A stretch of 64,000 bases of DNA from an uncultured Mycoplasmatota bacterium (GCA_947652325.1 CANTCQ010000001.1:198725-262724); one strand, 5' to 3'. Positions 2,873 through 12,255 are shown, counted from the first letter of the stretch. The notes: generated from the sequence alone by a model not told the origin. A program made the numbers and translations.

Positions 2873-2884
2873 GAGTGATACCAG

Positions 2885-2924
2885 ACTCGAACTTTTAGTA
2901 AATTATAAGAGTTCGAGTTTTAAT
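2885..2924 (+). terminator. rho-independent terminator after tRNA-Leu, part of the conserved left-end module
   Basis: The hairpin ACTCGAAC..GTTCGAGT is followed by a T-rich tail. The same hairpin follows tRNA-Ala at about 44306-44345. Confidence 0.6.
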
Positions 2925-2970
2925 ATTCTTAAATTTATGATAAAATATCTGTAGAAATCTAATTGGTTTA

Positions 2971-3004
2971 TGTCAATTTAGTAAAACACACTTGCACATT
3001 GACA
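2971..3004. repeat. conserved palindromic leader motif, copy 1 (TGTCAATTTAGTAAAACACACTTGCACATTGACA)
   Basis: The outer arms TGTCAAT/ATTGACA are inverted. The motif recurs at 5210, 10794 and 44390. It lies downstream of a TGATAAAAT extended -10 at 2938-2946. Confidence 0.7.
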
Positions 3005-3040
3005 GTATCAATTTGCGAGTATATAGGAGAGTTAGGTATT

Positions 3041-3496
3041 GTGAATAAAGTAAGCTATTATTTTTTAAACCAAATGTATGATGTTCAAGCTTTATCTCAA
3101 GATTATCAAGAGCATTTATCTCAAGTTTATGAATATGGCAGTCATATGCTAAATTATAATATAGAAATAACTAAAGGAGATTTTCAGGAAGTATTTAATA
3201 CAATATATAGTATATTAAGATTTCGAATAGATGATAAAGATTTTGAAAAGGTTAGTGAACATTATTTAAAGCTTTTAATGGCTGATGCTAGGGATGGTAA
3301 TAATGTAAATGTAAATTGGTTTATTAACCATGTGTGGTATTTATGTGTTGGTATATCTAATGAGATTGACATTAAAACATATAGAGATTGTATTTCCTTT
3401 ATACAACAAATTTTGATAAAAAAGTTTGATATTCAAGAAAATATAAAAGAAAAAGTAAAAAGAAAAATCTACGCTAAGTTTATGACAAAATGTTAA
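3041..3496 (+). CDS. hypothetical protein (cassette 1)
   Basis: A GTG start lies 11 nt after AGGAGA. The upstream TTG start in the ORF track would read through the leader motif. The stop lies inside the right-end repeat. Confidence 0.5.
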   Translation: MNKVSYYFLNQMYDVQALSQDYQEHLSQVYEYGSHMLNYNIEITKGDFQEVFNTIYSILRFRIDDKDFEKVSEHYLKLLMADARDGNNVNVNWFINHVWYLCVGISNEIDIKTYRDCISFIQQILIKKFDIQENIKEKVKRKIYAKFMTKC

Positions 3497-4077
3497 TTTG
3501 TCCTTCCTTAGGGCACCAGATTGATGTGAAATGGCTTCGAAAAGTTAGAAAATCAGATGTATTTACTAAAATCACTCTTCGAGATTTACAAAATCAAATG
3601 AGATTACATTTTATTGAAACTTACAATAAGGAATATGGTTTAGAAGATATTCTAAACGCAAAAATGGAAGGTAGAAATGAAGGTTATACTAAACCTGAAA
3701 ATGTTAGAATTAAGAAACAACTTAAAACTCAAGAGAATAATTTAAAACGAGCTAAAGATAAATCTGATAAATTAGATAGTGCTACCAAAGAAGTAAAAGA
3801 AATATTAAATAATACCAAACTTACAGGATTTAATAAAAATCAGTGCGTATTATCTCTTAATGAAAAAGAGAAAATTGATGAATTTGTTAAGCAAGTAGAT
3901 AATACTAATAAAGAGTATCACAGAATACAAAAGTTATCAGCAACTTTAGAAGAAATGAATTCTAATCTTTTTAGAAGTGAACAACAAATTGCGTATCTTA
4001 CTATGAAAAATTCAAATTTAGAATCAGAAAATATTACTCTAAATAAAAAGTTAAATGAACAAGAAATTACTATTTGA
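3490..4077 (+). CDS. coiled-coil protein, possibly a 5'-truncated Mob/Pre-type relaxase remnant
   Basis: The apparent start runs through the junction repeat, so the N-terminus is probably lost. The protein has a long Lys/Glu/Asn coiled coil. Frame-broken continuation is visible to about 4320. The Mob/Pre resemblance is from memory only. Confidence 0.3.
   Translation: MLICPSLGHQIDVKWLRKVRKSDVFTKITLRDLQNQMRLHFIETYNKEYGLEDILNAKMEGRNEGYTKPENVRIKKQLKTQENNLKRAKDKSDKLDSATKEVKEILNNTKLTGFNKNQCVLSLNEKEKIDEFVKQVDNTNKEYHRIQKLSATLEEMNSNLFRSEQQIAYLTMKNSNLESENITLNKKLNEQEITI
3491..3525. repeat. cassette junction repeat (right end TTTGTCCTTCCTTAGGGCACCA + left end GATTGAT)
   Basis: GGGCACCA at 3511-3518 is followed directly by GATTGAT. 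The same GATTGAT follows the CCA of tRNA-Ala. Confidence 0.65.
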
Positions 4078-4323
4078 TAATTTAAAAGATGAAAATAAAA
4101 CTTTATCTTCTAAACTTAAATATTTTAAAGATATGTTTTACAATCTTGTTTGATTTTTAATGAATAAAGTCTTTAGGATTAAAGATAATAAGTATAAAGA
4201 TTTTGCTAAAGAATTATATAATCACGGAGCATTGGATAAAGAAAATTCTGAAGGTATAATGGTTATGCCTAAAGCTAATTATTCAAAAGAAATTGAAACA
4301 TTAAAAAAAGAAGATTTTGAGCT

Positions 4324-4797
4324 TTAATGCTTAAAATCTCCTTTTAAAATGCTGATATTTTTAGTTTTCTTTGGTATTGAATTTAAACTATAATTAATGT
4401 TGCCTTTATCACTTTCACTTATAATAAGTTTTGAAGAATCATATGAACAATTTCCGTCACTATCAATTGTAATTGTTCTTTCACCTTTTGTTATAATAAA
4501 TTTTTTTAATTGTCCATAATTTAAAGATATCATATCAGTGGTTTTATTATTTTTTTCATCTAATTTTCTTTTTACTTTTAATAAAAAACTTGGGTATTCA
4601 TTTACTGAACTTGTAGATATTTCACATATTTTTGTATAAACTTCATTGATTTCTAAAGGAAAAGTTAATCCTAATAAATATTGTTGTAATTGTTCTTCAT
4701 TTTCTAATTTAAATACATAATCACTGAAAACATCAACTTTAATACTTTTTTGATTATGATACCTATTTAGAGCTAATGGATTATTTAAAACAAGCAA
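4324..4797 (-). CDS. hypothetical protein
   Basis: 157-aa ORF on the opposite strand between two coiled-coil remnants. No recognisable motif. Confidence 0.4.
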   Translation of the reverse strand: MLVLNNPLALNRYHNQKSIKVDVFSDYVFKLENEEQLQQYLLGLTFPLEINEVYTKICEISTSSVNEYPSFLLKVKRKLDEKNNKTTDMISLNYGQLKKFIITKGERTITIDSDGNCSYDSSKLIISESDKGNINYSLNSIPKKTKNISILKGDFKH

Positions 4798-5183
4798 ATG
4801 AGGCAGTTAATAAAGTTGTTAAAAGCGAAGGCCTTTATAAAGAGTTGGAAAAAGAAATTAAATATTACAAAGCATTTTTAGCAATCAATGATGAAAAAGA
4901 TAATGAAATAAAATATTTAAAGAAAGAACTTGAAGAAGTAAATACCAAATATAATTCTTTAAAAAGTTTTATTTCTAATTTACTTCAATTACTAAAAGGT
5001 ATATTTAAGAAAATATTATCTATTGGTACTGATAAAGAAAAAGATTTAGTTAGTGAGCAATTAAAAGAATGTTATGATAATCATTTATATAGTGAAAATG
5101 ATATAAGTGATATTGTTAGAAACACACCCAAAGAGATAGAATTAACAAATTATATCGAAGAAAAGGACTACGATTATTTTTAA
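4776..5183 (+). CDS. coiled-coil hypothetical protein, possibly a second Mob/Pre C-terminal remnant
   Basis: Heptad-rich sequence paralogous in style to the 3490-4320 region. It ends in the hairpin GGACTACGATT..AATCGTAGTCC at 5165-5195. Confidence 0.35.
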   Translation: MDYLKQANEAVNKVVKSEGLYKELEKEIKYYKAFLAINDEKDNEIKYLKKELEEVNTKYNSLKSFISNLLQLLKGIFKKILSIGTDKEKDLVSEQLKECYDNHLYSENDISDIVRNTPKEIELTNYIEEKDYDYF

Positions 5184-5209
5184 AATCGTAGTCCATAAAT
5201 ACTAAATGG

Positions 5210-5259
5210 TGTCAATTTAGTAAACATACTTGTACATTGACATAATCAATGAACGTGTG
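5210..5259. repeat. conserved leader motif, copy 2 (TGTCAATTTAGTAAACATACTTGTACATTGACATAATCAATGAACGTGTG)
   Basis: Near-identical to copy 3 at 10792-10839 along its whole length. Confidence 0.7.
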
Positions 5260-5373
5260 CAAAAGAACTTATCCTTTTGAAACCAAGAAAATATTTATTA
5301 TTAGATATTATGTTTTATCTTTGAAACTATTATAAATCAAAAAAATAGTGTATAATTTTATATGGTGGTTGTT

Positions 5374-7107
5374 ATGAAAGAAACAAGAAAAAATTTAGGA
5401 AGAGTCTACCAATATGGGAAGAAATACAAGATTTTTTTAGTGCTAGAACTAATAGGATCAGTACTAGGCATTGTATTTAGTATAGTTATTCCAATATTGT
5501 CGGCACAGCAATTAGTCAAGTTTACGGATTCAGTATGGGACCAAGTAATTATTATAAGTAGTATTTTGTTTGGTGTAAGTATTCTTCAATGCTTATCAAA
5601 TATTTTAATTAGAAAAAGTTCTCAGTTTTTCTGGACAGGAATTGTCTCAACAATTAAGCTTAAACTAGGAAGAAAATTAGTAAAAACTGAACAAAAATAT
5701 ATTGATACTTCATCCTCAGGTGTTTTTATTCAAAGAATTGATAATGATACTGAAAATTTAGGTTCTATTTTTACTATTGGTTTAAATTATTTAACGGGGG
5801 TAATATCTAGCATTGGAGTTTTTATTGCTATTTTTATTATTAATAAACAAGTTTTTTTATATTTCCTTATTGTTTCAGTTATTTTATCTTTATTACATTT
5901 ATCTAAAATAAAAAAATATGGTAAAGAGTTTTCAATTTTTTTAAAACAAAGTGATAAAGTTACAAGTTTAGTAGGAGAATTAGTTAGAGGTGTTAGAGAT
6001 ATTAAAATGCTAAATGCTAAGGAAAACTTTCTCTCTAATTTTTATAATAATATTGAAATACAAAACAGAAATAAATATATTATGAGAAATACTGAACTAG
6101 CGTATAACTTTATCATCTCACTTTCTAAAGGAATGTTTGAACTAATACTTGTATTCATATTAATTTATTTAGTAAAAGGAGAAATTATAGAAATATCAAT
6201 AGCTGTAGTTTTATTCTCTTATAGAGCTAATGTAATGGAAAATTTTATGGAAAAGCTAGGCGATATGCTAACTGAAATCAAAAAGTTTAATATTTCTTGC
6301 AATAGGGTATTTTCTTTATTAGAAAATAGAGAATTTCCAAAAGAAGAATTTGGTAAAAAACATATTAATAACATTAAGGGGAATTTTGAATTTGATAATG
6401 TAACATTCGGGTACATAGAAGATTATCCAGTTTTAAAAAATATCTCATTTAAGATAAAAGAAAATGAAATGGTAGCTTTTGTTGGTAAAAGCGGTGCTGG
6501 AAAAACAACAATTTTTAATTTACTATGTAAAATATATGATATTGATAATGGAGTAATAAAGATTGATGGAGAAGATATAAAAAATCTAGATGAATATTCA
6601 ATTCGTGAAAACATTACCATTATTAGTCAAAATCCTTATATTTTTAACATGAGTATTCGAGATAACTTAAATTTAGTGAAAAAAGATTTAACAGAAGAGG
6701 AAATGATTGAAGCTTGTAGAATGGCATGTTTAGATGAATTTATTGATACCCTACCAGAAAAATATGACACAATTGTTGGAGAAGGTGGAGTAATTTTATC
6801 AGGAGGTCAAAGACAAAGATTAGCAATTGCTCGTGCATTTATCCAAGATACAAAAATAATATTATTTGATGAGGCTACTTCAGCATTAGATAACGAAACT
6901 CAAGAACATATACAACAGGCAATAAGCAACATGAAAGATAAATATACTATATTAATAATTGCTCATAGATTATCTACTATAGTTAATTCAGATAGAATAA
7001 TGTTAGTAGAAGATGGACATATTACAGATTCTGGTACACATAAAGAATTATTATTAAAAAATAAAACTTATAAAAAACTTTATGAAAACGAAATTTTGGA
7101 TAAATAA
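5374..7107 (+). CDS. ABC transporter, fused permease/ATP-binding exporter
   Basis: The N-terminal half is a six-helix hydrophobic domain. Walker A is GKSGAGKTT, the signature is LSGGQRQR and Walker B is ILFDEATSALD. The ATG at 5374 is preferred because a GGTGG RBS precedes it. Confidence 0.9.
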   Translation: MKETRKNLGRVYQYGKKYKIFLVLELIGSVLGIVFSIVIPILSAQQLVKFTDSVWDQVIIISSILFGVSILQCLSNILIRKSSQFFWTGIVSTIKLKLGRKLVKTEQKYIDTSSSGVFIQRIDNDTENLGSIFTIGLNYLTGVISSIGVFIAIFIINKQVFLYFLIVSVILSLLHLSKIKKYGKEFSIFLKQSDKVTSLVGELVRGVRDIKMLNAKENFLSNFYNNIEIQNRNKYIMRNTELAYNFIISLSKGMFELILVFILIYLVKGEIIEISIAVVLFSYRANVMENFMEKLGDMLTEIKKFNISCNRVFSLLENREFPKEEFGKKHINNIKGNFEFDNVTFGYIEDYPVLKNISFKIKENEMVAFVGKSGAGKTTIFNLLCKIYDIDNGVIKIDGEDIKNLDEYSIRENITIISQNPYIFNMSIRDNLNLVKKDLTEEEMIEACRMACLDEFIDTLPEKYDTIVGEGGVILSGGQRQRLAIARAFIQDTKIILFDEATSALDNETQEHIQQAISNMKDKYTILIIAHRLSTIVNSDRIMLVEDGHITDSGTHKELLLKNKTYKKLYENEILDK

Positions 7108-7130
7108 TAGAAGGAAATATTGTTATAATA

Positions 7131-7165
7131 TAGTCAGTTAATAAATTATTACTGACTATTTCTTT
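7131..7165 (+). terminator. rho-independent terminator after the ABC exporter
   Basis: Hairpin TAGTCAGT..ACTGACTA followed by TTTCTTT. Confidence 0.6.
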
Positions 7166-7173
7166 GCCTAGAT

Positions 7174-7226
7174 AGTTGTTGTACTTCTCTCTCTCGGGCA
7201 CCAGTAAGCAATCTGTCCGAACTTTT
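7174..7226. repeat. cassette junction repeat (AGTTGTTGTACTTCTCTCTCTCGGGCACCA + diverged left end GTAAGCAATCTGTCCGAACTTTTA)
   Basis: This is the best match to the right-end consensus. It is almost identical to 45274-45303. Confidence 0.7.
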
Positions 7227-7311
7227 ATAGTTTAGGGCTTAAATATATAAGTATCAATTTCTAAAGAAGTTGGTACTTTTTTAGTGTTTAAGAAAGAAAG
7301 GACAGGTTTAA

Positions 7312-7587
7312 ATGGTAAATATTACAAAGGAAAAATTAGAAATTGATAACGAATTAAAGAAAAAGATAGAATTTATATGTAGTTTTTGTAATACTACTCC
7401 AACTATTATTAATGGTAATATTAGAAAAATTAATAAGACAAATTTAAACTATATTGAACCTCATAGAATAATTATTAAAGGTATTACATTTCTAGCATTT
7501 AATTATTCTAATGAAATATTTGTTGAAAATTTATCTAAAAACATTAAATTATCAGATTTAGAAGACTTTATAAAACAAATAAACTAA
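7312..7587 (+). CDS. hypothetical protein
   Basis: 91-aa ORF with an upstream RBS-like AAGGA. No recognisable motifs. Confidence 0.4.
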   Translation: MVNITKEKLEIDNELKKKIEFICSFCNTTPTIINGNIRKINKTNLNYIEPHRIIIKGITFLAFNYSNEIFVENLSKNIKLSDLEDFIKQIN

Positions 7588-7741
7588 ATTATATATAAAT
7601 GTATTAACTTCTTCTAAAATTGCCTTTAAATAGGCAAAAAATGGTAATTATGCCTAGACTTTATATCAAAAGTATCTATAATAAGTAAGCAATAAAAGGA
7701 AGTTTTATGTTTTTGTGGGGGTTAATGTAAAACAAATATAA

Positions 7742-9436
<1,695 letters not shown>

Positions 9437-10363
9437 AAAAGCATAAGCATACTATAGAAATAATGAATAGGTATTTTTGTTTAAGTAATTTAACTGTTTT
9501 AAGTTATGACGTAAAAGGAAATCGTAGAGAAAATTTAGCTGAAGATTATTTTTATCAATATATTCAAGAACATAAGGAAGATATAGAAACAATAAAAGCA
9601 GTAGCATTAAAAATTAAAAATCTTGGATTTAATGAAATTACTTTTGGAGAAAAATTAGATTTTACTAAAACTGAATATGAGTTAGATACTTCATATGGAA
9701 GTGATTTTACTTTTTTAGAAAATATGGAAGTTAATTCTACGTATATAAATAGTCCAATTAAATACAGAACTAACGATTCATGTTATTGCATGATTTTAGG
9801 ATCTGTTGGATATGGTGATAATAAGGAAGTTAGTAAATATGGTAAAAATATAGAATTAAATAGTCTAATATTTGATTCAAATAGATTGCCAAATGAAATA
9901 ACAAGAGAATCTACTATAGAGCTTATTTACGAATTAGCACAAGAGAAAAAAGCAGAATATGAAGATATACGAGATTCTGTAGATTTAAGTATATCTACCA
10001 GCGATTTAAAAGATTATTTTGAGCGTTTGAAAGCAGTAACTGAAAGAATTGATAAAATAAAAGATAATCAAGAATTGATGAATTTATTAAATCAAATGCA
10101 AAATACATTGGTACAATTACAATTATTTGGAGTGAATTTTGAAAATCAAATAGTTGATTCTCATACAGATATTACAGATGAAACAATGAAAAGAGAGAAA
10201 AAAGTATATTTAAATAGAAGATATTGGGCTAGTATAGATATTGATTAAATATTATAAAATTTAATAAAGTGATAAAAACGGATTGCTACTTTTTTCATTA
10301 TTTGTTAAAATATTACTAGAAATTGATACAAACATTGTATTGATTACTGAATTTAGCGAAAAA

Positions 10364-10421
10364 AGTTTGAAATAACTTTCTTACTCGCACCAGATTGATA
10401 GAAAACTCGAACTTTTCGAGT
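10364..10421. repeat. cassette junction repeat (AGTTTGAAATAACTTTCTTACTCGCACCA + GATTGATAGAAAACTCGAACTTTTCGAGT)
   Basis: CACCAGATTGATAG matches the tRNA-Ala/island junction at 44289-44302 exactly. The agreement resumes at AAACTCGAACTTTT after a 1-nt difference. Confidence 0.7.
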
Positions 10422-10430
10422 ATTAAGTAA

Positions 10431-10456
10431 AACGACTTGTCAAAAAGTCGTTTTTA
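10431..10456 (+). terminator. rho-independent terminator
   Basis: Hairpin AACGACTT..AAGTCGTT followed by TTTT. Confidence 0.55.
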
Positions 10457-10499
10457 TGTTATTATGAATATGTCAAGGAAACTTGAATATAATAAAAAA

Positions 10500-10586
10500 G
10501 GGAATACTTAACCTTTCCATGTTGAGTGTTCGCCAAAGGTTTGGTTAGCACTTAATCTACGAAAGTAAATTGAGTGCTTTTTTCTT
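10500..10586 (+). ncRNA. putative antisense antitoxin sRNA, convergent with the small toxin ORF
   Basis: A TATAAT box lies at 10488-10493. The terminator hairpin AGCACTTAAT..ATTGAGTGCT plus a T-run sits at about 10549-10586. The toxin transcript would probably overlap it at the 3' end. Confidence 0.3.
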
Positions 10587-10597
10587 ATGATAGTTTA

Positions 10598-10681
10598 CTA
10601 AATTACAAAAGTAAAGAGTAAGGCTATGAGTAAGAAGATAATTAGAATAAGAGAAAGAATCAAAAAATCTTTCTTATGCAT
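10598..10681 (-). CDS. type I toxin-like small hydrophobic peptide (27 aa, MHKKDFLILSLILIIFLLIALLFTFVI)
   Basis: Not in the ORF track because it is too short. It has a strong RBS (AAAGGAGG, 8 nt before the ATG) and its own extended -10 (TGATATAAT, complement of 10744-10752). The 5' UTR can pair with the RBS region. Confidence 0.55.
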   Translation of the reverse strand: MHKKDFLILSLILIIFLLIALLFTFVI

Positions 10682-10776
10682 ATCATCAGCCTCCTTTCAC
10701 ATGAAAGTTGGCAAGCACTCAACGATTAAATATTCCTAATATAATTATATCAGGTTATTTATTTTATAACAATGTT

Positions 10777-10839
10777 GTTTACTAAATTTTGGCAATTTAG
10801 TAAACACATTTGTACACTGACATAATCATTGAACGTGTG
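10777..10839. repeat. conserved leader motif, copy 3, preceded by a perfect 12-bp inverted repeat
   Basis: GTTTACTAAATT (10777-10788) and AATTTAGTAAAC (10794-10805) are exact reverse complements. The motif continues as ACATTTGTACACTGACATAATCATTGAACGTGTG and runs directly into the RBS of the next gene. Confidence 0.7.
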
Positions 10840-10851
10840 TAGGAGGTACTT

Positions 10852-11544
10852 ATGAGGAAAACAGTAACAACATTATTTATGTTAGAATCATTAGATGGAA
10901 AAATTAATAGTGGTAATAGCGATAATCTTGATGCTGATAAAGATTGGTGTAGAATAACTGGAGTTAAGGAAGGATTACATCAATACTATGAAATTGAAGC
11001 TACTACAGATTTTTATTCATTAAATACTGGTAGAGTTATGGCTAAAATCGGAGTTAATGAAAGAACAGAATATCATAATAAAGTAGATTGCAGATTTATT
11101 ATTATAGATAATAAACCTCATTTAAATGAAAAAGGTATAGATTATATATGTCATTGGGTTGATAGACTTATACTTGTAACAACAAATAAAAATCATGTTG
11201 CATATTCATTGCAAGAAAAATATGATAATCTTGATATCTTATTTTATGATTCTTTAAATCTAAGTACTTTATTATCTGATATGGCAGAAAAATATAATGC
11301 AGAAGCAATTACAATTCAATCTGGTGGAACATTAAATGGAAAATTTTTAAGAGAAAATTTAATTGACTATGTTAATGTAGTTATTGCTCCATTATTGGTA
11401 GGTGGAAAAGATACATCAACTTTAATAGATGGAGAAGCAATAACTTCTTCTGAAGATCTTAATAAGTTAAAGGCTCTACAATTAATTGAGTGCAACCAAT
11501 TAGAAAATTCATATATTCAATTGAAATATAAAGTAATAAAATAA
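10852..11544 (+). CDS. dihydrofolate reductase-family / RibD C-terminal domain protein
   Basis: The N-terminal LFMLESLDGKIN and the C-terminal QSGGTLNGKFLRENLIDYVNVVIAPLLVGG match the RibD_C pattern. The RBS is TAGGAGG. Confidence 0.65.
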   Translation: MRKTVTTLFMLESLDGKINSGNSDNLDADKDWCRITGVKEGLHQYYEIEATTDFYSLNTGRVMAKIGVNERTEYHNKVDCRFIIIDNKPHLNEKGIDYICHWVDRLILVTTNKNHVAYSLQEKYDNLDILFYDSLNLSTLLSDMAEKYNAEAITIQSGGTLNGKFLRENLIDYVNVVIAPLLVGGKDTSTLIDGEAITSSEDLNKLKALQLIECNQLENSYIQLKYKVIK

Positions 11545-11545
11545 A

Positions 11546-11598
11546 AGTTGTTGAACGTCCTCCCTTAGGGCACCATAATGTGATTAACTTGAACCCTC
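11546..11598. repeat. cassette junction repeat (AGTTGTTGAACGTCCTCCCTTAGGGCACCA + TAATGTGATTAACTTGAACC)
   Basis: The right-end consensus starts 2 nt after the stop codon of the preceding gene. Confidence 0.65.
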
Positions 11599-11632
11599 TT
11601 ATTTATTGGGGAATGAGTGATGTTCTAAGTAA

Positions 11633-11661
11633 AAATCTTCACAAATAAGTGAAGATTTTTG
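11633..11661 (+). terminator. rho-independent terminator
   Basis: Hairpin ATCTTCAC..GTGAAGAT followed by TTTTT. Confidence 0.55.
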
Positions 11662-11835
11662 CATTTTATAATGATTTTTTTGTAAAAAGTAGATAGGATA
11701 TAATAATATAAGACATTTTTAAATCAGAAATCAAACTGATTTTATTTGGAAATAAAACATAAACTATTAAGAAATTATTTGATATGTGTTACAATAGAAC
11801 TAACAGATAAATAGTAATTTGGTACTGAGGCATAT

Positions 11836-12147
11836 TTGGGAATGAGAAATAACAAATATAAAACCGAAGAAATATATTATGCTTCTAATCCTGCAACTTT
11901 AGGTTTAAAAGCAAGTATTCGAGGATTATTTTACGATTTTCATTGCGTTATGAATAATGAAATAATACTTTTACATTTACCTAAATATATTCAAGATAAA
12001 AGTTTTGAATTGAGTGAAGAGGAGTATGAGGAATTAGATGAACTAGCTACATTAATGCTAAATGTTGATTCTAATTTTGAAAAATTATTAGAGATATGGA
12101 ATAGTAAAGAAAAATTTAGAATTATGTCTGGTGCACTAAATAGCTAA
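11836..12147 (+). pseudogene. C-terminal fragment of a transglutaminase-like protein, paralog of 60672-60968
   Basis: EEIYYASNPATLGLKASIRGLFYDFHCVMNNEIILLHLPKYIQDK aligns with DIYYASNPLKYGLEAAIHGLFYDFHSIMNNEIIFLHLPKYIVDK at 60696 onward. The catalytic N-terminal domain is absent. Confidence 0.6.
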
Positions 12148-12222
12148 ATCGTTTTGTTAAAATCACAAAAATAGTGTTATACTATAGTTAATTAATTTAT
12201 GCTAACTATTTTTTGCCTAAGG

Positions 12223-12255
12223 AGTTTGTTGTACGTTCTAATGAATGGTACAATG
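12223..12255. repeat. degenerate cassette right-end repeat (AGTTTGTTGTACGTTCTAATGAATGGTACAATGG)
   Basis: It shares TTTGCCTA.G.AGTT.GTTGTAC with 7164-7185. The GGGCACCA terminus has decayed. Confidence 0.45.

Follow-up and report, generated by a model that had tools for sequence, protein, structure and literature searches.

Type I toxins are defined as small hydrophobic peptides with a transmembrane segment, and a charged C-terminal tail is typical of many of them (PMC5961336). The families of type I toxin-antitoxin (TA) systems are narrow in distribution and hard to find, because the tiny peptide and the RNA both go unannotated (PMC5367252). Here we describe a module of approximately 380 bp located in a stretch of 64,000 nucleotides (nt) from an uncultured Mycoplasmatota bacterium (GCA_947652325.1 CANTCQ010000001.1:198725-262724, the whole of which is referred to as the window), in which the gene for a 27-residue hydrophobic peptide on the minus strand converges with the gene for a predicted antisense small RNA on the plus strand. 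We estimate a probability of roughly 75% that it represents, in intact form, a family of type I TA-like modules that had so far gone unannotated. As judged by sequence comparison the family is new but its kind is known: the layout is like that of described systems, with no detectable sequence relationship to them. The recurrence of the module, its kept open reading frame (ORF) and the z-scores of RNA folding all exceed chance.

The systems txpA/RatA and bsrG/SR4 of Bacillus subtilis (also bsrE/SR5 together with yonT/as-yonT) share with the module a small hydrophobic membrane peptide, a Firmicute host and convergent genes, and the antisense RNA, which in the module is a predicted one, overlaps in both cases the toxin mRNA in its 3' part. 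This 3'-overlap layout is reportedly a feature of txpA/RatA and bsrG/SR4, as is decay that depends on RNase III. SR4 occludes the Shine-Dalgarno (SD) sequence of bsrG, and post-segregational killing is the usual outcome of a convergent toxin/antisense arrangement. An earlier sequence-only reading of this DNA had called the layout typical of TxpA/RatA- and BsrG/SR4-type systems; the convergent genes and the 3' overlap bear this out, as a resemblance only, with no match to a curated toxin family. The module peptides are of 24-30 aa with a charged N-terminus, whereas the B. subtilis toxins are of 30-59 aa with a charged C-terminal tail, and no sequence relationship was detectable for either peptide or RNA. 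The module is hosted by small tRNA-adjoining units and the B. subtilis systems by prophages, and only in the module is the 5' untranslated region (UTR) of the toxin mRNA predicted to mimic the antitoxin and to clamp onto the antitoxin's target in the 3' UTR. As the module probably does, the B. subtilis type I systems lie in horizontally acquired elements, in the maintenance of which a role has been proposed for them (PMC10730256).

The Clostridioides difficile pairs CD2517.1/RCd8, CD2907.1/RCd9 and CD0956.2/RCd10 have, as predicted for the module, convergent overlapping transcripts and structured antisense RNAs, encode small transmembrane toxins and occur, as the module does, in multiple copies near mobile or variable regions. 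Their toxins are of 50-53 aa with a Lys-rich C-terminal region, the overlaps span 131-283 nt, and RNases III, J and Y contribute to decay of the toxin mRNAs (PMC5961336). These systems are associated with CRISPR arrays and prophages and have been validated experimentally; the module has no sequence similarity to them.

In hok/sok of Escherichia coli R1 and aapA1/IsoA1 of Helicobacter pylori, as in the predicted fold of the module, pairing between the 5' and 3' ends locks the toxin mRNA, and such fold-back inhibition is said to keep the full-length mRNA stable and inactive. The antisense RNAs of hok and aapA1 bind the 5' region after 3' processing has opened the clamp, whereas the module encodes its predicted antisense RNA opposite the clamp's own 3' arm; these systems come from a different phylum and have no sequence relationship to the module. 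The par system (Fst/RNA II) of Enterococcus faecalis pAD1 is, like the module, a convergent Firmicute pair with a toxin of ~30 aa and a protective 5' helix. The par RNAs share a bidirectional terminator and pair via direct repeats at the toxin 5' region which cover the ribosome-binding site. In the module, unlike par, the terminators are separate and the 5' segments that resemble each other form inverted repeats at the DNA level; the two RNAs are thus similar there and not complementary, for which reason we do not regard the module as par-like.

Conservation of the peptide gene

The candidate toxin ORF on the minus strand (10681..10598) encodes 27 aa plus stop, MHKKDFLILSLILIIFLLIALLFTFVI, in which a charged N-terminus is followed by an uninterrupted hydrophobic stretch of 22 residues (residues 6-27). 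With fewer than 60 aa, a hydrophobic character and a predicted transmembrane segment the peptide is of the kind by which type I toxins are defined. The SD sequence GAAAGGAGG (10698..10690, minus strand) lies 8 nt 5' of the ATG. The sequence-only reading had claimed this ORF, this SD and an extended -10 promoter belonging to it, and all are present.

The genome from which the window derives, 1.27 Mb in 16 contigs, is that of a low-GC, uncultured gut bacterium, and related database records carry the labels uncultured Bacilli, Tenericutes or Erysipelotrichaceae. A blastn search with a 458-bp stretch, run against 61 related genomes, found it in 28 of the 30 that belong to the same genus and in 33 of the 36 that belong to the family, frequently with 10 or more matching pieces per genome, while matches beyond the family were borderline only. 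An alignment of full-length copies was prepared (n=31, 68-89% nucleotide identity to the window). An exact 27-nt query from the antisense promoter, searched in one genome per GTDB species, matched at least 120 loci, found in metagenome-assembled genomes (MAGs) of uncultured Bacilli from the guts of rabbits, goats, mice, chickens and humans.

Of the 31 copies, 30 have an intact ORF, 24-37 codons long and in a common register, and the remaining copy is frameshifted, so that conservation of the small ORF in homologous loci, on which the sequence-only reading had in part staked its claim, was confirmed. The SD and ATG are conserved among the copies, GGAGG being found 6-10 nt 5' of the start codon in 25/31. 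Mean pairwise differences at codon positions 1, 2 and 3 were 0.355, 0.141 and 0.427, position 2 being the most conserved, and the pooled pN/pS was 0.38 with pS near saturation. A convergent hydrophobic ORF was also found 190-225 nt from the promoter motif in 95 of 130 further modules, and many of those lacking such an ORF are cut by contig ends. On this comparative evidence the 27-aa ORF is a real gene under coding selection.

The peptides fall into five subfamilies, each with a charged N-terminus and a single hydrophobic (transmembrane) stretch. The peptide of the window belongs to the subfamily MxKKDFLILSL... (27 aa), and the remaining four are represented by MKKKDLLISFLILIIILLIVSLMILCIKK, MKTKTFIIKVLKLIAIILFLLIIMIVVIKK, MTKREFSQFIIILLLFLVVIILLLK and MRKSEKYLCTIIILLIIVILVILIKIVPTV; subfamilies B and C end in KK. 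A 37-aa ORF on the plus strand (10626-10739) was considered as a gene and rejected, since neither its start codon nor an SD nor its end is conserved. The frame antisense to the peptide gene is nevertheless open in 29/29 copies, because NTN codons read ANN on the opposite strand, and such an always-open antisense frame is a caution for the calling of small ORFs in AT-rich genomes.

The family was absent from the collections of known families that were searched. The toxin-family searches proposed by the sequence-only reading returned nothing specific: against Pfam and NCBIfam, up to E = 10, the five peptide types matched generic transmembrane entries only. There was no match to the Fst Pfam family, PHROGs contained no family matching the peptide, and Rfam gave noise only, whether scanned at its gathering threshold or with E relaxed to 10. 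When 1.84 billion representative proteins were searched with a profile, 77 matches were obtained, and the 27 sequences inspected among them were all peptides of this same family. Ten representative peptides (eight distinct and two N-terminally extended) had no exact match among 15 billion proteins. The few public protein matches are unnamed and several are extended through the TGA stop (P0002, P0005, P0007, P0008, P0013 and others run past ...IKK as WHLI...), because MAGs bearing the label Tenericutes or Mycoplasma had been translated with table 4; these MAGs use TGA as a stop in this gene. Full-text literature searches returned no description of this module family.

The two predicted transcripts and the predicted 5'-3' clamp

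The toxin-strand promoter (10744..10772, minus strand) consists of TTGTTA (10772..10767), a spacer of 17 nt and TGATATAAT (10752..10744), scored 10/12 plus TG in the promoter scan and is conserved in homologues. Where a peptide ORF is accompanied by sufficient upstream sequence (88 modules), a TATAAT-like -10 box lies 55-72 nt 5' of the start codon in 71, and the consensus upstream of the peptide ORFs reads TTGt...TATAAT...aGGAA. The predicted peptide mRNA (10737..10494, minus strand) would be about 245-247 nt long, starting at AGGAAUAU ~7 nt past the -10 box and ending at the U-run after GUAUUCCC. Its 5' UTR opens near 10737 with AGGAAUAUUUAAUCGUUGAGUGCUUGCCAACUUUCAUGUGAAAGGAGG, and its 3' UTR comprises a hairpin (10586..10548), a second element and then GUAUUCCC with U6. 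The transcript may instead extend to the hairpins at 10454..10405, the outermost terminator-like site of the toxin strand being the hairpin ACTCGAAAAGTTCGAGT with its T-run (10405..10421, minus strand), which is kept as ACTCGAA...TTCGAGT in many copies.

On the plus strand the antisense promoter P1 (10437..10465) reads TTGTCA-N17-TGtTATTAT with an extended -10, and also scored 10/12 plus TG. Its -35 box lies in the loop of a bidirectional terminator-like hairpin, AAAACGACTTGTCAAAAAGTCGTTTT (10429..10454, both strands), the stem of which varies among copies while the loop TTG is retained. Conservation of P1 was scored in 128 modules at positions upstream of the motif that had been searched, and hence was unbiased by the search. 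It reads TTGnnA, 17 nt, TGnTATtAT, with the defining bases 85-98% conserved and the spacer positions variable. In the -35 box the counts of 128 were T 122, T 117, G 114 and A 111; the TG was found in 126 and 122; and in the -10 box the counts were T 126, A 124, T 109, A 120 and T 125, with the fourth -10 position T in 77. This pattern is, as read from the alignment, the signature of a working extended -10 promoter.

Since P1 is conserved throughout the family, the antisense RNA is placed with a start near 10472 and a length of ~115 nt (10472..10586, plus strand). The sequence-only reading had instead started it from a TATAAT at 10488-10493 on the plus strand, with a terminator ending at about 10586 and an RNA of roughly 90 nt. 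That box and that terminator are both there; the likely promoter, P1, lies ~28 nt further upstream, and the main form is probably the longer one. The 10488-10493 box is less likely as the main promoter, as it reads TAAAAT in the family consensus and has a poor -35 box, although it may provide a second start near 10500 and an RNA of ~87 nt.

The small RNA is predicted to fold into four hairpins, all on the plus strand: SL0 at 10472-10486, whose loop is of the GNRA type and which is followed by an A-rich tract, SL1 at 10502-10531, SL2 at 10532-10545, and SL3 at 10547-10586, which is the terminator and includes its T-run. The terminator hairpin, AGCACUUAAUCUAC-GAAAG-UAAAUUGAGUGCU plus T-run, ends at 10586, 12 nt short of the toxin stop codon. 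Read on the other strand, the T-run of SL3 is an A-run directly past the toxin stop codon, which overlaps the last Lys codons in the subfamilies ending in KK. RNAalifold analysis of 28 copies gave consensus hairpins SL0, SL1 and SL3, with compensatory changes at 7 of 22 pairs, located in SL1 and SL3. Many pairs of the small RNA are U-G pairs, which would be A-C mismatches on the opposite strand, and SL1 is steadier on the small-RNA strand in 21/30 copies. The small RNA lies opposite the toxin 3' UTR, with perfect complementarity over ~87-95 nt that includes the 3' arm of the clamp described below, and its 5' part resembles the toxin 5' UTR. SL0 (GUCAAG-GAAA-CUUGC) and the A-tract (10472-10499) are near-invariant over the five subfamilies and many species, more so than the peptide or the remaining RNA.

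The folding and duplex predictions that the sequence-only reading had proposed were in its favour. The predicted mRNA has a minimum free energy of -70.1 kcal/mol against -41.1 +/- 4.3 for shuffles (z = -6.8), the small RNA gave z = -5.6 in its short form and -4.8 in its long form, and cognate duplexes were stronger than non-cognate ones. In the predicted fold the first part of the mRNA (nt 2-30, GGAAUAUUUAAUCGUUGAGUGCUUGCCAA, 10708..10736, minus strand) pairs with nt 202-237 of the same molecule (10501..10536, minus strand), the complement of SL1 of the antisense RNA, to form a 5'-3' clamp supported by covariation. RNAalifold analysis of 30 aligned copies found compensatory changes in two elements, the terminal part of the clamp and the hairpin after the stop codon. 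The terminal clamp helix was 94.6% paired, with both sides changed in 7/13 pairs, and the post-stop hairpin was 89.7% paired with 8/13 compensatory pairs. For the window structure 84% of alignment cells were paired, falling to 37-50% when the partners were slid by 1-3 columns, and the covariation score was equalled in 0/500 shuffles. Two further tests were independent of the alignment. Duplexes between 5' UTR and 3' UTR had a mean of -33.4 kcal/mol when cognate against -27.0 when non-cognate, and the clamp was steadier when read on the toxin strand in 30/30 copies (-33.1 vs -24.6), a difference due to G-U pairs.

The sequence-only reading had noted in the 5' UTR the string CGTTGAGTGCTTGCCAACTTTCATGTGAAAGGAGG, with AAGCACTCAAT as its complement, and both occur, the latter just past the stop codon. 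The box noted in that reading (GUUGAGUGCUU with AAGCACUCAAU) also covaries (cognate -16.8, non-cognate -13.3) and is probably an alternative pairing; the strongest partner of the 5' UTR, however, is the distal site in the 3' UTR, 10501-10536. The further claim, that the 5' UTR can fold over the ribosome-binding site, holds in part: the SD is partly paired with 10703-10712 of the 5' UTR (with CUUUC, and GCC with GGC), and the core of the SD is predicted to be unpaired with a mean probability of 0.25. When the 3' UTR was blocked in silico, the unpaired probability of mRNA nt 2-8 rose from 0.02 to 0.52. A highly structured toxin mRNA with 5'-end protection is thus predicted, as is typical of type I systems. 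As far as sequence can tell, all the type I hallmarks that can be tested in silico were found here and are conserved over many homologous loci, and the placing of the module in the type I class as a candidate TA pair, as the sequence-only reading had interpreted it, is supported.

Candidate mechanism and competing explanations

In the mechanism that we propose, a sigma-A-type promoter on the minus strand would give an mRNA encoding a single-helix membrane peptide, and the first ~30 nt of this mRNA would pair with its own 3' UTR and close the 5'-3' clamp. The clamp would bury the 5' end, giving a long-lived, poorly translated mRNA. As the 5' UTR resembles the 5' part of the small RNA, both would compete for one site in the 3' UTR; the antisense RNA would bind there and open the clamp, which would make the 5' end accessible to RNase J or to RNase Y, while the long duplex would be a substrate for RNase III, and the mRNA would be destroyed. 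The genome of the window encodes RNase III and two RNase J paralogues. Should the DNA unit be lost, the shorter-lived antisense RNA would decay first, the peptide would be made and membrane damage would follow, and the module could in this way stabilise its variable gene unit, here the TA module with a RibD_C gene near a tRNA gene. An occlusion of the SD by the small RNA, as with SR4 and bsrG, was considered and dropped; SD accessibility was barely altered by blocking of the 3' UTR, and we therefore propose a model of decay only. The specific combination of antitoxin mimicry and clamp prying with a function as the addiction part of undescribed small gene cassettes stacked at the CCA ends of tRNA genes in uncultured gut Bacilli is put forward tentatively and is doubtful by our own estimate. 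If it were true, the near-invariant SL0 and A-tract would have a second function in cassette biology.

Several observations weigh against the type I interpretation. The peptide lacks the charged C-terminal tail. It has no match in any curated toxin family. The hairpin preceding the U-run on the toxin strand is weak, with a mean of -4.9 kcal/mol, and the transcript ends are predicted positions. The predicted accessibility of the SD hardly changed when the 3' UTR was blocked (0.25 vs 0.30). The covariation counts overstate independence, because the copies are related to one another and one of them supplied the structure. The type I interpretation does not account for the near-invariance of SL0 and the A-tract.

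The first of these points, together with the fact that many type I toxins have been described with a charged C-terminal tail (PMC5961336), leads to the most serious of the competing explanations, in which a real membrane-peptide gene under cis-antisense control would encode a non-toxic peptide, a modulator of membrane proteins or a stress peptide, with no addiction system. The coding and antisense-RNA evidence fits a non-toxic peptide equally well, and many predicted B. subtilis type I systems were never shown to kill (PMC10730256). We nevertheless consider it unlikely, since multiple and tandem copies with ever-different neighbours in hypervariable tRNA-adjoining DNA would be unexpected for a housekeeping modulator, the clamped and highly structured mRNA is typical of toxin mRNAs, and remnants with only the small-RNA side fit the loss of a harmful gene.

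The unequal conservation along the small RNA bears on two other explanations. Conservation is far higher in the promoter and over the initial 30 nt of the RNA than in the remainder, and the first ORF past the module lies on the small-RNA strand in 69/97 cases. Both would suit a plus-strand transcript that is mainly a leader or attenuator of the downstream, co-oriented cargo gene (here RibD_C, 10852-11544); the hairpin with its T-run would then terminate transcription conditionally, and pairing with the peptide mRNA would be secondary. The first ORFs past the toxin promoter, however, form 81 clusters from 97 modules, and with cargo genes so mutually unrelated no common ligand or signal would be expected. 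Tandem modules occur with no cargo between them, there were no matches to Rfam cis-regulatory families, and in the window a convergent promoter, an entire peptide gene and a further palindrome intervene between the terminator and the cargo gene; a leader is accordingly a very improbable account of the locus. Slighter still is the chance that the conserved DNA is a mobile-cassette end, either recombinase-binding or a target mimic, with the ORF, promoters and hairpins incidental in AT-rich DNA. It would accommodate the abutment of the module on tRNA 3' ends or their copies and the fact that the best-conserved stretch (10455-10499) is non-coding, and is contradicted by codon-level selection and the conserved SD and ATG, by strand-specific G-U pairing on two different strands, by promoter-type conservation with a variable spacer, and by the more than half of modules that are away from any tRNA end.

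If the type I TA interpretation is confirmed, this would be a widespread type I system (at least 120 loci in human, mouse, rabbit, goat and chicken gut MAGs) in a lineage that lacks a cultured model. The five toxin subfamilies, which have one antitoxin promoter in common, would provide a natural series for the study of RNA-RNA specificity and of the 5'-3' clamp, and the family would mark variable tRNA-adjoining islands in reduced genomes as actively maintained mobile DNA.

Genomic setting and recurrence

In the window the module begins directly after a copy of a tRNA 3' end, CTCGCACCA (10384..10392, plus strand), which closes the preceding unit of an array lying downstream of tRNA-Leu(CAA). 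In 38 of the 130 further modules the promoter motif is preceded by a genuine, co-oriented tRNA gene (for Leu, Thr, Arg, Met, Phe or Ala) that ends within 400 nt of it, mostly at 75-90 nt; other modules come after tRNA-end copies or stand in tandem. With the downstream content as varied as described above, the module sits in hypervariable, probably mobile DNA. No match to the antisense-promoter 27-mer was found among IMG/VR viral contigs, and the module had no blastn match in phage and plasmid collections.

The sequence-only reading had also compared the array with the TA cassettes of chromosomal integrons. The Vibrio superintegron TA cassettes do share with the module the placing of an addiction-type module among variable, promoter-poor units in a tandem array. 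Integron TA cassettes are type II protein systems with attC sites and an IntI integrase. The unit boundaries of the module, unlike attC, mimic tRNA 3' ends, and the only recombinase nearby, and the only one among the ORFs scanned with Pfam, is a broken, fragmented serine recombinase. The hypervariable unit context thus agrees with the comparison and membership is not indicated, no search for attC or IntI having been made; the likeness to integrons is one of analogy only.

The unit of the window that contains the module (10393-11575) consists of the TA module and a gene with a RibD_C domain. This cargo gene (10852-11544, plus strand) encodes 230 aa with a RibD C-terminal (dihydrofolate-reductase-like) domain (Pfam E = 3e-16). 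A palindrome, GTTTACTAAATT-TTGGC-AATTTAGTAAAC, separates the toxin -35 box from the RibD_C gene at 10777-10805 and is also noted at about 2971 and 44390. Over 60 nt that include the palindrome the sequence is repeated at 5200-5259 with 88% identity, and related sequence is found 5' of the cargo genes in several homologous modules. The window stacks several units, each closed by a copy of a tRNA 3' end (...GGGCACCA or ...CTCGCACCA).

Which units lie downstream of the syntenic tRNA-Leu(CAA) varies from species to species within the genus (window 2873-12255 and five other loci, L165, L168, L169, L171 and L175). In three genomes the tRNA-Leu is directly followed by a unit that comprises a 91-aa ORF and a serine recombinase; the TA module takes this place in one genome and a palindrome-headed cargo unit in another.

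The genome of the window contains one intact copy of the module and two remnants with small-RNA-like sequence only, at G000:C6:5104-5206 (L002 1441-1543) and G000:C7:28709-28780 (L178 310-380). Both keep the promoter or SL0, the A-tract and the terminator hairpin and lack the peptide ORF, and they may be relics in the form of orphan antitoxins. The remnant on contig C6 comes after a second copy of the 75-nt unit end found at 10318-10392 of the window.

In other genomes the modules are multi-copy and some are in tandem. Head-to-tail arrays comprise three modules 475 nt apart in one locus (L130) and two modules in each of eight others (L008, L053, L074, L124, L134, L145, L146 and L156), and the neighbours in such arrays at times come from different peptide subfamilies, side by side.

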